Counted from the first letter of the stretch, positions 48,354 through 56,476 are shown. The stretch is 62,047 nucleotides of DNA from Pseudomonadales bacterium (GCA_041682035.1 JBFKKR010000004.1:1-62047); one strand, 5' to 3'. Translations and numbers: made by a program. Notes: generated from the letters alone by a model not told the origin.

Positions 48354-49409
48354 ATGAGCAGTCAACTGGCGGACCTGCTGCAGACCTGGCACGCGCAACG
48401 CGCGGCAGCGCGCTGGGCGCTCGGTACGGTCTACGAGACCGAGCGCTCCAGTTACCGGAAGGCCGGCGCGATGATGCTCTTCAACGATCTCGGCCAGCAG
48501 TTCGGCGTGCTCAGCGGCGGTTGTCTCGACAGCGAACTGCACCGCCGCGCGCGGCAGGTGATGGATACCGGCCGGTCGCTTTGCCTGGCGTTCGACAGCG
48601 CCGACGAGGACGACATCTCCTACCAGTTCGGGATCGGCTGCGGCGGCGTGGTGCGGGTGCTGTTGCAGCCGCTCCGCGATGACAACGCGATGCTCGACCT
48701 GGAGCGGGTCCGGCAGGCGCTCTCGCGCCGCGAGGCGGGCCTGTACCGGCAGCGGATCGTCTCCGGCGAGGCGCCGGTTGCAGAATTCGTGACCGCCGCG
48801 GTGGACGAGCCGCGCTGCGGCGCGCATGGCTGGCGCCCGGGCCGGCTGGTGGAGGCCGCGGACGGATGCTGGCTCGAGACCTGGATCCAGCCGCCACCGC
48901 ACCTGCTGCTGGTGGGCGGCGGACCGGATGCGCTGCCGCTGCTGCACATGGCGCGGCAGCTGGGCTGGGAGGTCTCGGTACAGGATGACCGCCCCGCCTA
49001 TGCCCGCCCCGAGTCCTTTGCGGCCGCGCATTGCGTGCTGCGCGAACCGCTCGACACGCTGGCCGCGGACGCATTGCTGCAATCGGTGGATGCCGCGGTG
49101 ATCATGGCGCACCACGTACAGCGCGACGCGGCGGCACTGCGGCTGCTGTCGCAACGGCCGCTGCTGTATCTCGCCCTCGTCGGGCCGGCAGCGCGCGCCG
49201 GCGAGGTCATGCAGGTGGCCGGATTGCGGGAGGACGACCTGGCCGCGCCGCTGCATGCGCCCGCCGGTCTGGATGTCGGTGGTGAGGGGCCGGAGGCCGT
49301 GGCGTTGTCGGTGCTGGCCGAATGCCACGCGCAGCTGCACGGCGGCGCACAGACGGCGCTTTCGGATCCGCAGCGGCTGCAGCAACCGATTCACCCGCAG
49401 CGCGCATGA
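48354..49409 (+). CDS. xdhC: XdhC-family molybdenum cofactor chaperone
   Basis: SSYRKAGAMM, GVLSGGCL, GIGCGG, LHAPAGLDVGGEGPEAVALS. Confidence 0.9.
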   Translation: MSSQLADLLQTWHAQRAAARWALGTVYETERSSYRKAGAMMLFNDLGQQFGVLSGGCLDSELHRRARQVMDTGRSLCLAFDSADEDDISYQFGIGCGGVVRVLLQPLRDDNAMLDLERVRQALSRREAGLYRQRIVSGEAPVAEFVTAAVDEPRCGAHGWRPGRLVEAADGCWLETWIQPPPHLLLVGGGPDALPLLHMARQLGWEVSVQDDRPAYARPESFAAAHCVLREPLDTLAADALLQSVDAAVIMAHHVQRDAAALRLLSQRPLLYLALVGPAARAGEVMQVAGLREDDLAAPLHAPAGLDVGGEGPEAVALSVLAECHAQLHGGAQTALSDPQRLQQPIHPQRA

Positions 49410-49987
49410 GCGGGACCGCCATCCTCGTGCTGGCGGCCGGTGCGGCCGCGCGCTTCGGCGCGCCCAAGCTGCGCGAGGAGATCGATGGCACATCCATCCT
49501 CGCCGGGCGCGTCGCGGTTGCGGAGGAGGTCGCGCCCGGCAATGTCCACGTCGTGCTGGCGGCAGACGACGCATGGGCCCGCGACTGCCTGCGGGGTGTG
49601 CACGTGGTCATCAACGAACGGGCGGCGGAAGGCCAGGGTACATCGGTCGCCGCCGGTGTGCGCTCGCTGCCCGGCGGCACGGATGCAGTGCTGATCCTGC
49701 CCGCCGACCAGGTCGCGGTCACCGCCGCGGACCTCACCACCCTGCTGGCCGCGCATCCGAACAGCGCGGCCGGCATCGCCTGTGCGCTTTACGACGGAAC
49801 CCGTGGCGCCCCGGCGGTTTTCTCGCGATCCTGGTTCGGGCGGCTCGCGGCACTGACCGCAGACCGCGGCGCGAAGGAGTTGCTGGCGGCCGCCGGTGTG
49901 CGGCTGGTGGAACTGCCCAACGCGGCGATCGATATCGATACGCGCGCGGACCTGGATGCCTACCGCTCGCTGCGCGCCGCCCGGTGA
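49406..49987 (+). CDS. mocA: Molybdenum cofactor cytidylyltransferase (MocA-like)
   Basis: [31 protein letters not shown]-coupled to xdhC. Confidence 0.85.
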
Positions 49988-50427
49988 ATCGCCCGGCGGA
50001 CCCGCACGTAGGTGCCGCAGCGGCAGAGCACGCCGGCCATGGCGGCATCGATGTCCTCGTCGCTGGGTTGCGGGTTCTCCGCCAGCAGGCTGATCGCGCG
50101 CATGATCTGGCCCGCCTGGCAGAAGCCGCACTGTGCGACGTCCTCGTCGATCCATGCCTGCTGCACCGGGTGCAGGGTGGTGCCATCGGCCACCCCCTCG
50201 ATGGTGACGATGTCCTTTCCAGTGACCGACGAGACCGGCGTGATGCAGGCACGCACCGGCTGCTGCCCATCGACGTGACAGGTGCAGGCGCCGCACAGCC
50301 CGTTGCCGCAGCCGTTCTTCGGGCCGGTGATGCCCAGCAGTTCGCGCAGGACCGTGAGCAGCGGCATGTCGGCCGGCAGGTCCAGCGTGTGCTCGCGGCC
50401 GTTGACGCGCAGTTCGATCGTGACCAT
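49960..50427 (-). CDS. (2Fe-2S)-binding small subunit of an IorA/OxiA-type molybdenum hydroxylase
   Basis: [25 protein letters not shown]; the real gene is the 3' end of the long ORF 49960-52794. Confidence 0.92.
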
Positions 50428-54262: not shown

Positions 54263-54313
54263 AAAAGTACAAAAGTTAAATCTGTTGACGATGAAAAGGA
54301 CAAGTGTTAATTT
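54263..54313 (+). promoter_or_regulatory. Promoter of the rox-like gene with two related operator-like boxes
   Basis: TTGACG (54285-54290)-17 bp-TAATTT (54308-54313); imperfect repeats AAAAGTACAAAAGTTAAAT (54263) and AAAAGGACAAGTGTTAATT (54294), 31 bp apart. Confidence 0.6.
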
Positions 54314-54394
54314 CGTGCATCATCCCAACCAGCGAATCATGATGAAGCCTGGACGAGCCGGGCCATATTGATCCCGACCGAGGAGGAACCTGTC

Positions 54395-56476
54395 GTGCGC
54401 CGATCCCTGCTTCCCCTGCTGATCCTGGGCTTCGGGCTGTTGCCCGCCGTCGCGCCGGCGGAGGATCCGAGCCCGGAGAATGCCGCCGTCGCGGCGGAGG
54501 AACTGCCGCCGCTGCTGGGCAGCAGCCGTGCCCGCCACGTGTGGGAGGATTTCTGCGCCGACCAGCCGGACGACGCCCCGCTGCCGGTCGATCCGCGCAC
54601 GCTGGTGCAGCCCGGCGCCTTCGGGAACAGTGCGGTGTTCTTCAACGCGTATTACGAGGATTGCCACGTCAACCTCCCGGACCAGCCGCACGCGCAGACC
54701 TGCGGCGAGTACCGCAGCCGGCGTGACCGGGGCTACCACTTCCTGCTGGACGAACTGCCCACCGGCGCCATGTCCGCCGGGGAATTCAACAACCTCTGGA
54801 AGAAGTGGGGCTTCGAAGAACGTCCGGAGAATTTCGACGAACTGTACACGCTGCGCTACGGCCTCAATCACGCGCCGTATCCCAACCCCTACCCGCTGCC
54901 GGGCGAGGACCCCAACGCCACCGACGGTGGTTCCGGCCAGTTGCCGATGGGCCTGCGCCAGTTGAAGGACGACAACGGCCGGTGGACCGGCCAGATCGGC
55001 ACCGGCTCCTGTTTCACCTGCCATGGCGGTTCGATCGGCGATCCGCGCAGCGGCGAGGCAGGCACGCCGCTGAAAAGCATGGGCCTGGGCAACAACAACT
55101 ACGACTACGTCATGTACGCGCGCGACAACGCGCCGTGGGGCGAATTCCCGCTGCTCGCCGACAACATTCCGTCGTTTGACCTGAGTTCCGCGTTCAATGT
55201 CGGGATCAGGCAGCGGGGCCAGAACAATGCGGTGGGCGCCTTCCTCCTGCTGAACACGATCCTCGACGTCGACTCGCTGGGTCCGAACCCCAACCCGCTC
55301 AAGACCGCCTCCTACGGGCAGGCCGGCGTGCAGGATGCACTGCTGCCGCTGGCGCACACGCAGGACACCCCGGCCTGGTGGAACTTCAGCCACCGTCCGC
55401 GCAAGTTCTTTGATGCCGGCGTATCGAGCGACAGCACCCGCATCATCATGGCGGCAGGTGTCGACGAGAACTCCCTCGCCAGCCATGACGGCAAGCCGTA
55501 TCGCAGCCGTGTCGATGAATACGACCAGGACGTGGAGGCGTTCCTGATCTCGCGCGAATCACCGGCGTTCCCGGGCGAGATCGACGAGGACCTGGCCGAG
55601 AAGGGCGCGGTGCTGTTCCACACGCTCGATCTGTTCGCGCTGCCCGGTAACGAGGAACACCCGAAGCCCCCCGGCGGCAACGGCTCCTGCGCGAGCTGCC
55701 ACGGCGCCTACTCGCCGCGTTACGTGAACGACCCGGCGTATCTCGAGGATCCGCGCCTGGAGGGCATCGCCGCGCACATCTCGCCGCTGGCGGTGATCGG
55801 CACCGACCGGGCCCGTTCCGACATGCTGGCGCCGACCCTGCGCGAGGCCTGGGACACCACCTTCTGGGGCTTCCCGGAAGGGGCCGAGGGCTGGACCCAC
55901 CCGGATGACAAGGACCCGATGACGGAACTGGCGGATGACATGTACCCGTCACGTCCCAAGGGTGTCTGCGGCTGGGAGAAGGGCACGATCGGTTACCTCG
56001 CGCCGCCGCTGTACGGCACCTGGGCGACCGCGCCGTATTTCCACAACGGTTCCGTGCCGACCATCGAGCAGGTGCTGGATTCCGGCAAGCGGCCGAACAT
56101 CTGGCGCCGCCTGCTGCAGACCGACGGCGCCGTCAGCGGTTTCGATCAGCGCCTTACCACCGCGTACGATTTCGAACGGCTGGGCTGGAAGCACGACGTG
56201 CTGACCTGTGACCAGATGCCGGGCACGGTGGCGATGAACTGCAACCCGGTCGATGACGGCGGACCTTCGCTGGTGCAGCTGGCGCAGAACGTCATCAACG
56301 CCAAGGGCACGTTCACCGGGCTGGTGGTGATTCCCGATCCTGCGCCGGGTGGCCTCGACAAGCGGCTGATCTTCGACACGCGGATTCTCGGCAACGACGA
56401 GGGCGGGCACACCTTCACCGATGCGCTGACCGATTTCGACCGCAAGGCGATCATCGAGTACCTGAAGACGCTCTGA
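54395..56476 (+). CDS. Rubber oxygenase RoxA/RoxB-family diheme dioxygenase
   Basis: AGGAGG RBS plus GTG; signal peptide; RYGL..APYPNPYPLPGEDPN..DGGSGQLP.GL; CFTCH; DTPAWWN..HRP.KF; GNGSCASCHG; PLYGTWATAPYFHNGSVP; C-terminal GGHTF...IIEYLKTL. Confidence 0.85.
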   Translation: MRRSLLPLLILGFGLLPAVAPAEDPSPENAAVAAEELPPLLGSSRARHVWEDFCADQPDDAPLPVDPRTLVQPGAFGNSAVFFNAYYEDCHVNLPDQPHAQTCGEYRSRRDRGYHFLLDELPTGAMSAGEFNNLWKKWGFEERPENFDELYTLRYGLNHAPYPNPYPLPGEDPNATDGGSGQLPMGLRQLKDDNGRWTGQIGTGSCFTCHGGSIGDPRSGEAGTPLKSMGLGNNNYDYVMYARDNAPWGEFPLLADNIPSFDLSSAFNVGIRQRGQNNAVGAFLLLNTILDVDSLGPNPNPLKTASYGQAGVQDALLPLAHTQDTPAWWNFSHRPRKFFDAGVSSDSTRIIMAAGVDENSLASHDGKPYRSRVDEYDQDVEAFLISRESPAFPGEIDEDLAEKGAVLFHTLDLFALPGNEEHPKPPGGNGSCASCHGAYSPRYVNDPAYLEDPRLEGIAAHISPLAVIGTDRARSDMLAPTLREAWDTTFWGFPEGAEGWTHPDDKDPMTELADDMYPSRPKGVCGWEKGTIGYLAPPLYGTWATAPYFHNGSVPTIEQVLDSGKRPNIWRRLLQTDGAVSGFDQRLTTAYDFERLGWKHDVLTCDQMPGTVAMNCNPVDDGGPSLVQLAQNVINAKGTFTGLVVIPDPAPGGLDKRLIFDTRILGNDEGGHTFTDALTDFDRKAIIEYLKTL

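Follow-up and report, generated by a model that had tools for sequence, protein, structure and literature searches.

A tetR-roxC pair beside an OxiAB-like molybdoenzyme cassette in a Pseudomonadales genome: probably a lineage-specific mosaic

Does a Gram-negative bacterium carry an analogue of the actinobacterial lcpR-lcp-oxiAB locus, built around an oxygenase of the Rox family? The question is raised by a stretch of 62,047 nucleotides from a Pseudomonadales bacterium (GCA_041682035.1, JBFKKR010000004.1:1-62047; hereafter the window), in which genes for a twin-arginine (Tat)-exported molybdoenzyme (iorB, iorA), its putative cofactor maturation (xdhC, mocA), a secreted CX4CH/immunoglobulin-like (Ig) protein and a TetR-type regulator lie next to a rox-family gene, the last divergent from tetR. 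A first-pass annotation of this DNA had read the locus as a self-contained system for polyisoprenoid cleavage and aldehyde oxidation. Here, we report that the rox-molybdoenzyme linkage is unique to the window genome among those examined, and that the oxygenase is assigned to the RoxC subgroup. The locus is probably a lineage-specific mosaic, in which two independently conserved modules meet at one tetR and any coupling between them is not a conserved one.

The claimed gene set (xdhC, mocA, iorA, Tat-signal iorB, CX4CH/Ig gene, tetR, rox-family gene) was present in full by Pfam and NCBIfam matches. The order iorA-iorB-CX4CH/Ig-tetR given by that annotation holds as a left-to-right order on the plus strand but not as an order of transcription, which on the minus strand runs tetR, Ig gene, iorB, iorA, with xdhC-mocA (plus strand) converging on them.

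Recurrence of the linkage and history of the locus

RoxC loci were collected with a 20-sequence alignment query (a single-protein query gave none) from one-genome-per-species contigs, yielding 72 loci, each with flanks of up to 10 kb; several assemblies contributed two or three of them. Searched with the window proteins (tblastn, E ≤ 1e-5), these loci gave one match to IorA (1/72), one to IorB (1/72) and none to XdhC, MocA or the Ig protein (0/72 each). The single case (L068) had iorAB 8 kb downstream in A-then-B order (IorA, 51% identity; IorB, 32% identity), and its IorB fell in another clade. Approached from the molybdoenzyme, 82 loci of IorB relatives (80 metagenomic, 2 plasmid) held iorA directly downstream of iorB in 66 cases, the remainder being mostly cut contigs, and held neither RoxC nor the Ig gene (0/82 each).

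To cover the RoxA and RoxB types too, the search was extended to the order around Solimonas fluminis (151 genomes; the two tallies include G068, flagged unpublished, on which no other result depends). Rox-family matches (E ≤ 1e-150) were found in 62/151 genomes (30 above the RoxB cut-off), IorB-type matches (E ≤ 1e-60) in 53/151, and both families in 16. When the 60 IorB places were compared with the 150 Rox places listed (21 weaker ones stood outside the list), one contig was shared in each of three genomes, and the distances on these contigs among the listed matches were 29 kb, 382 kb and 548 kb. The synteny survey of rox homologs thus runs counter to the linkage as a recurring system: the linkage did not recur.

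The tetR-roxC pair, by comparison, is found repeatedly. With an ortholog defined by at least 180 amino acids (aa) aligned at 41-54% identity within 10 kb of roxC, TetR was present in 24/72 RoxC loci (21/53 with adequate flanks). It adjoined roxC in 15 of them (10 divergent upstream, 3 convergent downstream, 2 co-directional upstream), and no ortholog of the window TetR was found in the 82 IorB-relative loci. In the window, the two genes diverge across an AT-rich 158-nt spacer holding two operator-like boxes (Table 1), the second of which lies between TTGACG and a TAAT-containing -10-like element of the promoter reading into roxC. Neither the window (0.01 matches expected) nor the whole assembly (reversed-pattern control, 0) had any other match to their pattern, and none lay ahead of xdhC. 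Other tetR-roxC intergenic regions hold an A-rich box with an ACA...TGT/GTTAA core, likewise placed between TTGAC(A/G) and a TAAT-containing element.

A stricter first regular expression for the operator missed most boxes. A looser one placed boxes no more than 300 nt from the tetR start in 11/24 tetR-bearing loci. Beyond these it had 5 matches in 1.24 Mb, of which three lay some 600 nt from a tetR start, and in the IorB loci (0.76 Mb) it had 2; the counts are descriptive only, because the pattern was written from the same sequences later counted. Because an operator-like box is common to tetR-roxC pairs in several genera, we infer that TetR most likely represses roxC, and probably also itself. 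A TetR-type gene divergent from that of a secreted haem oxygenase-like protein, as first annotated, is therefore well founded, as a recurrent pair with an operator-like box over the promoter.

Close relatives show how variable the region is. Neither RoxC nor the IorB-type gene turned up in G001, G002 or G003 (two same-genus genomes and one same-family genome), and among 60 relatives only one other genome gave a strong Rox match (573.8 bits). The same-genus genome G002 is collinear with the window: it keeps the SDR gene and all genes to its left (left-side genes at 85-94% protein identity), followed by tetR (68% aa identity) and the queD-like gene, whose stop is separated from the start of tetR by 11 bp. 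Missing from G002 are the five-gene molybdoenzyme block (xdhC to the Ig gene), roxC, the operator-like box, and a PAS-GGDEF diguanylate cyclase gene (Table 1), which makes a third difference in this variable stretch. The corresponding region of G003 holds other DNA, about 8 kb of it.

The molybdoenzyme block is bounded by the SDR terminator and the tetR stop codon. Its genes have a G+C content of 0.696-0.725, versus 0.687 for tetR, 0.667 for roxC, 0.650 for the SDR gene and 0.664 for the whole window. Repeats, direct or inverted, were looked for at the borders of this 5.2-kb cassette, with only short imperfect matches, as expected in G+C-rich DNA, and no transposase was seen. The cassette looks recently acquired. 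We infer two histories, in which the tetR-roxC unit was lost or never completed in G002 and the molybdoenzyme cassette was acquired separately.

The oxygenase, the molybdoenzyme and their neighbours

The oxygenase had been labelled RoxA/B-type. Its product scored 1049.7 bits against the NCBIfam RoxC profile (cut-off, 900), versus 561.9 bits for RoxB (cut-off, 900) and 496.8 bits for RoxA (cut-off, 1000), and the same RoxC equivalog (NF051462) gave 1048.8 bits in a whole-genome search. It shares the fold family of RoxA and RoxB (the RoxA structure 4B2N aligned full length, E 9.2e-121, and the Pfam RoxA-like_Cyt-c domain is present), but it falls under both of their curated cut-offs and differs at residues conserved in active enzymes. 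In the 4B2N alignment, W302 and F317 of RoxA pair with F348 and A363 in the numbering of the 702-aa open reading frame (ORF), or F339 and A354 in that of the 693-aa protein. Both RoxA residues are conserved in active rubber oxygenases according to a 2024 review by the discoverers of RoxA and RoxB (PMC10837239), and the RoxC column of its Table 1 gives F at W302 and A at F317.

Haem motifs CFTCH and CASCH and an acidic mature protein (theoretical pI, 4.65; 73.5 kDa) complete the likeness to RoxCs, which the same review describes as acidic (pI, 5.04 and 4.63 for two expressed members). The window protein departs from the subgroup in two respects. The profile match spans positions 151-812 of 812, and the protein is a short form without the N-terminal third-haem domain. 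Most RoxCs have, according to the review, a lipoprotein signal peptide with Cys directly after the cleavage site (frequent, not universal), whereas the window protein reads MRRSLLPLLILGFGLLPAVAPA/EDP (APA/EDP) at its N-terminus and has its first Cys not before residue 54 of the 693-aa protein; since the Cys after the signal peptide is missing, it is probably not a lipoprotein. By its sequence, then, the window oxygenase belongs to the RoxC subgroup and not to RoxA or RoxB, and the earlier label was replaced, as the RoxC equivalog cut-off was passed, both others were missed, and W302F and F317A were found.

The window RoxC is 67% identical to that of Fontimonas thermophila and 65-67% identical to named RoxCs in general; more than 100 other RoxC-like sequences share 58-67% identity with it. 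The RoxCs of Fontimonas thermophila and Oceanococcus atlanticus, the only two to have been expressed, are reported to show no rubber cleavage and no latex-dependent O2 consumption (unpublished results cited in PMC10837239), and the review treats RoxC function as an open question.

Recurrent neighbours of RoxC were identified by ORF clustering across the 72 loci. DUF3570 occurred in 20 loci, with ApbE in 16, a Baeyer-Villiger monooxygenase (BVMO)-like flavin monooxygenase in 15/72, with an alpha/beta hydrolase gene immediately behind it in Oceanococcus-type loci, and TerC in 11. Acyl-CoA dehydrogenase, AMP-binding ligase, DUF1302/DUF1329 and, in Oceanococcus-type loci, a desaturase-like gene with a reductase gene were further neighbours. 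None of these recurrent families was found in the window. They suggest hydrophobic-substrate oxidation, a substrate not being proven by them.

Three side observations concern Rox genes in other genomes. The most pathway-like RoxC context seen was a compact divergent cluster on two Oceanococcus metagenome-assembled-genome contigs (L059:6990-16310 and L060), with tetR, ferredoxin-reductase-like, fatty-acid-desaturase-like and MerR genes on one strand, and roxC, a BVMO-like monooxygenase gene, alpha/beta hydrolase and amidase genes and then a resistance-nodulation-division (RND) pump on the other. In Sinimarinibacterium thermocellulolyticum, an lcp-like PF09995 gene (L026:4084-5400, minus strand) lies about 4.6 kb upstream of roxC, which would put Lcp-type and RoxC-type genes together in a Gram-negative bacterium. 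Solimonas fluminis HR-BB (G061) has ten Rox-family matches, several of them in tandem (for example, C1:674538-678507 and C23:329298-336935), pointing to a large expansion of Rox paralogs in this order.

The molybdoenzyme has the two-subunit makeup of OxiAB, in that an IorB-type molybdenum subunit with a Tat signal is joined by an IorA-type partner that has two [2Fe-2S] clusters. The Tat motif of IorB is SRRRFLK (the start Met being residue 38 of a longer ORF). The genes run B-then-A, the order that we take oxiB and oxiA to have in the lcp loci of Streptomyces sp. K30 and Actinoplanes sp. OR16. They follow tetR, divergent from roxC, and are not immediately downstream of the oxygenase gene. The best solved relative of IorB was the large subunit of the Gluconobacter oxydans membrane aldehyde dehydrogenase (8GY3_C; residues 48-750 versus 12-757, E 5.8e-44). 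The window enzyme resembles that dehydrogenase and IorAB enzymes in its full-length large-subunit match, 2Fe-2S small subunit and twin-arginine export, but differs from them in its B-then-A order and in having no adjacent gene for a cytochrome c subunit.

The nearest relatives of IorB (52-53% identity) were soil-metagenome sequences, and named relatives (42-46% identity) were mostly actinobacterial, with Povalibacter and Pendulispora in addition; within the window's own order, identity did not exceed 36% (among the 60 relatives). In a midpoint-rooted tree of 100 sequences (FastTree), all B-then-A relatives formed one clade, separate from the IorBs of the window's order, and the window sequence grouped with five soil contigs in a small subclade. 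There, mocA and xdhC also converge on iorBA in L125, and in L124 and L126 the gene just ahead of iorB encodes a TetR protein. These two regulators were considered as equivalents of the window TetR and rejected, as only the helix-turn-helix region aligns (35% over 52 aa) and the family of the C-terminal domain differs.

The neighbouring subclade held Streptomyces and Kitasatospora sequences and the contigs L141 and L168, in which (2/82 IorB-relative loci) iorB is immediately preceded by a gene for an lcp-like PF09995 protein with a Tat signal, an arrangement like that of lcp and oxiAB in actinomycetes (PMC13737355). Window IorB is 43-44% identical to these lcp-linked IorBs, in a tree built without a reference OxiB. 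The B-then-A order, the Tat signal and a clade with members directly downstream of lcp-like genes bear out the annotated Tat-exported OxiAB-like molybdoenzyme. To judge from these features, "OxiAB-like" is a fair description of clade, gene order and export signal only; orthology and substrate lie outside it.

Genes of its own for cofactor maturation, also claimed for the locus, adjoin the enzyme genes as family-level profile matches to an XdhC-type chaperone and a MocA-type cytidylyltransferase, of the kind that serve the molybdopterin cytosine dinucleotide (MCD) cofactor. The best NCBIfam matches were XdhC_rel_AOR (1e-28) and TIGR03310 matur_MocA_YgfJ (1.7e-28); because both fell under their equivalog cut-offs, the names XdhC and MocA are used at family level only.

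The Ig protein belongs to a family of secreted proteins of about 285 aa (choice-of-anchor V plus Big_7; homologs P0250-P0292). Full-length homologs were found only at 28-38% identity, a word-level homolog search was empty, and an Atlas search gave only leads at 0.84-0.85 (Big_7, Reeler). Across 22 aligned homologs, a Cys, a Cys-His pair, a His, an Arg, a Trp and an Asp are invariant, and the spacing between the cysteines varies from 1 to 4 residues. An AlphaFold2 model (pLDDT, 88.9) has two beta-sandwich domains, to which Foldseek returned only tandem Ig/FN3-type matches (TM ≤ 0.39). Neither a fixed haem-attachment motif nor a cytochrome fold was found in the homologs, the model or the Foldseek search, and a role as a c-type cytochrome or electron acceptor of IorBA was rejected on the variable Cys spacing, the Ig/FN3-only folds and the lack of recurrence.

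Coordinates of all features are given in Table 1. The mocA start overlaps the xdhC stop (ATGA), the iorB stop and the iorA ATG have one base in common, and 5 bp separate the Ig gene stop from the iorB start. Two further sets of genes in the window were noted. PF09995 (MPAB_Lcp_cat, the family that includes Lcp) has five matches in the assembly, one in the window and others on contigs C16, C25 and C193. The lcp-like protein of L141, which is 53% identical to that of L026, had no similar protein in the window, so the PF09995 protein in the window is probably a generic family member. Just left of the locus, a set of three genes is collinear in G002 and G003 at 59-86% protein identity.

Table 1. 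Coordinates of the locus and of other features mentioned, counted from the first nucleotide of the window
Feature	Position	Strand	Description
xdhC	48354-49409	+	Pfam XdhC_CoxI 1.5e-17, XdhC_C 4.5e-27; G+C 0.715
mocA-like molybdenum cofactor cytidylyltransferase	49406-49987	+	NTP_transf_3 2.4e-28 (MobA-like NTP transferase); G+C 0.725
iorA/oxiA-like small subunit	49960-50427	-	155 aa; Fer2_2 2.3e-30 and Fer2 2.2e-07 (two [2Fe-2S])
iorB/oxiB-like molybdopterin-binding large subunit	50427-52580	-	717 aa; MoCoBD_1 2.2e-26, MoCoBD_2 1.9e-18
Secreted CX4CH/Ig protein	52586-53476	-	Signal peptide, CGNAGCH, choice-of-anchor V (E 3.8e-23), Big_7
tetR	53541-54236	-	TetR_N 4.2e-07
Two operator-like boxes	54263-54280, 54294-54311 (feature 54262-54311)	+	AAAAGTACAAAAGTTAAA and AAAAGGACAAGTGTTAAT; sequence reading
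roxC	54395-56476	+	693 aa; GTG start behind GAGGAGG; secreted di-haem RoxA-superfamily protein
SDR intrinsic terminator, left edge of molybdoenzyme block	48275-48305	+	GGGCCCGCG-TC-GCGGGCCC then TTTTTCTT, by direct reading
queD-like (PTPS) gene, right edge	56508-56864	-	PTPS 1.3e-38
PAS-GGDEF diguanylate cyclase gene	57658-59763	+	
PF09995 gene	16665-17609	+	E 1.1e-62
Three-gene set left of the locus	43719-47345	+	591 aa (weak cytochrome c match); 289 aa (GEGP-motif dihaem, under cut-off); 321 aa (no family)

Readings of the locus and their meaning

If the locus is a mosaic, as we consider probable, its first module would be tetR-roxC. TetR would repress roxC and its own gene and be released by a hydrophobic ligand, and the product would be a Sec-exported di-haem RoxC, which by family chemistry would most likely be a C=C-cleaving dioxygenase acting on an unsaturated lipid or isoprenoid, probably not rubber. 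The second module would be the 5.2-kb cassette of higher G+C, with xdhC-mocA converging on Ig-iorB-iorA. XdhC and MocA would supply the MCD cofactor to IorBA, which would be exported folded by Tat and whose periplasmic substrate would most likely be an aldehyde or an N-heterocycle.

Several observations weigh against two independent modules. The 3.1-Mb assembly has one copy each of roxC and the IorB-type gene (one IorB match at E ≤ 1e-40), and these lie 1.8 kb apart, which is improbable for a pre-specified pair; with both genes single-copy the adjacency is unlikely a priori, yet the pair was picked post hoc and is not recurrent. The cassette sits directly downstream of tetR on the same strand, across a gap of 64-100 nt in which no terminator-like hairpin was seen (fold z = 0.67, without a U-run), so the cassette may be read through from the TetR-controlled promoter and co-regulated with roxC. 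A consensus promoter and terminator scan of 48200-56800 was also empty, a weak negative because it missed even the SDR terminator, which is obvious by eye. Oceanococcus-type loci hold a desaturase-like gene and a reductase gene behind tetR on the same strand, so enzymes of a pathway may gather in this slot. Within the broad clade of the window IorB, some members lie directly behind lcp-like oxygenase genes, and the proposed chemistry would thereby have a precedent for such an enzyme. The comparison with G002, finally, is compatible with an insertion here or a deletion there.

The alternative that survives best is that the two arms work together on a compound that is not rubber, which we regard as possible but rather doubtful. 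RoxC would cleave a double bond of an unsaturated lipid or oligo-isoprenoid outside the cytoplasm, with an aldehyde and a ketone as products, the acquired IorBA would oxidise the aldehyde to an acid in the periplasm, and tetR-Ig-iorB-iorA would form one transcript derepressed jointly with roxC. The two operator-like boxes in the spacer, the lack of a visible terminator between tetR and the Ig gene, and the tight or overlapping junctions of Ig gene, iorB and iorA would all fit such a unit, but xdhC-mocA has no box and stands behind a terminator, and the cassette differs from roxC in G+C. An aldehyde dehydrogenase as the best solved relative of IorB, the lcp-like genes directly upstream of iorBA in two related loci, and RoxC neighbours elsewhere that are suited to converting a ketone, ester or acid product further (BVMO-like flavin monooxygenase, hydrolase, acyl-CoA dehydrogenase, ligase) agree with the chemistry. 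Against these stand the lack of a RoxC with a known substrate, the absence of the recurrent RoxC neighbour families from the window, and a single occurrence (1/73 RoxC loci, counting the window).

A more specific proposal, and by our estimate a slightly less probable one, is that RoxC cleaves a non-rubber isoprenoid or unsaturated lipid and that a horizontally acquired OxiBA came to lie behind a RoxC-specific tetR, one ligand then switching on both cleavage and periplasmic aldehyde oxidation. If true, the logic of lcpR-lcp-oxiAB would have been put together a second time, convergently, with an oxygenase unrelated to Lcp, and the locus would give the first genomic pointer to the RoxC product.

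It is unlikely that the neighbourhood is an accident throughout, with the interval from the SDR gene to the queD-like gene serving as a variable hotspot for unrelated cargo (cassette, roxC, GGDEF gene). Three relatives do differ here, G002 having only tetR and G003 other DNA, the GGDEF gene is also missing from G002, and the two arms differ in G+C; the pairing of tetR with roxC is nevertheless conserved and thus, for its part, no accident, and the orientation and tight spacing of the cassette behind tetR fit read-through.

The architecture does parallel that of Streptomyces sp. K30 and Actinoplanes sp. OR16, for which PMC13737355 describes a locus of a TetR-type regulator, lcp and oxiAB. As there, a TetR-type gene is divergent from a secreted haem oxygenase gene, with a Tat-signal IorAB-type hydroxylase nearby. 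The window differs in that its oxygenase is a RoxC, unrelated to Lcp, its molybdoenzyme genes follow tetR and not the oxygenase gene, the Ig/CX4CH gene, xdhC and mocA are added, and the arrangement occurs in one genome only. A Gram-negative analogue for rubber, with RoxC cleaving cis-1,4-polyisoprene and IorBA oxidising oligo-isoprenoid aldehydes, is highly improbable: this parallel, the full-length homology to RoxA and the B-then-A, Tat-signal clade of IorBA speak for it, but RoxA and RoxB scores under cut-off, F and A in place of W302 and F317, two RoxCs (one 67% identical) reported in unpublished results (PMC10837239) not to cleave rubber, absence of the linkage from all other Rox loci examined, and an IorB outside the lcp-linked subclade speak against it.

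The self-contained polyisoprenoid locus of the first-pass annotation is consequently not upheld, the oxygenase being of a type with two relatives reported inactive, the linkage not recurring, and a same-genus genome having tetR without either arm. Because no conserved "rox-oxiAB" system has been shown, neither annotations nor citations should treat the window as a locus for rubber degradation. Among the rubber-oxygenase papers retrieved, no title or abstract reports a rox-oxiAB linkage, the genome paper of Rhizobacter gummiphilus does not mention oxiA, oxiB or TetR, and the main text of PMC10837239 does not mention TetR, oxiA, molybd- or operon. What is new in the locus is the combination, its members all being of known families.

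RoxC is the largest branch of the rubber-oxygenase family, and the locus and its comparisons offer three handles on it. The RoxC-specific TetR has a recognisable operator in several genera, and its ligand should be the substrate or a product. The recurrent RoxC neighbours point to hydrophobic, ketone- or acid-yielding chemistry. The window itself adds one natural case of an aldehyde-oxidase-type enzyme that has landed in a putative TetR-led transcription unit.

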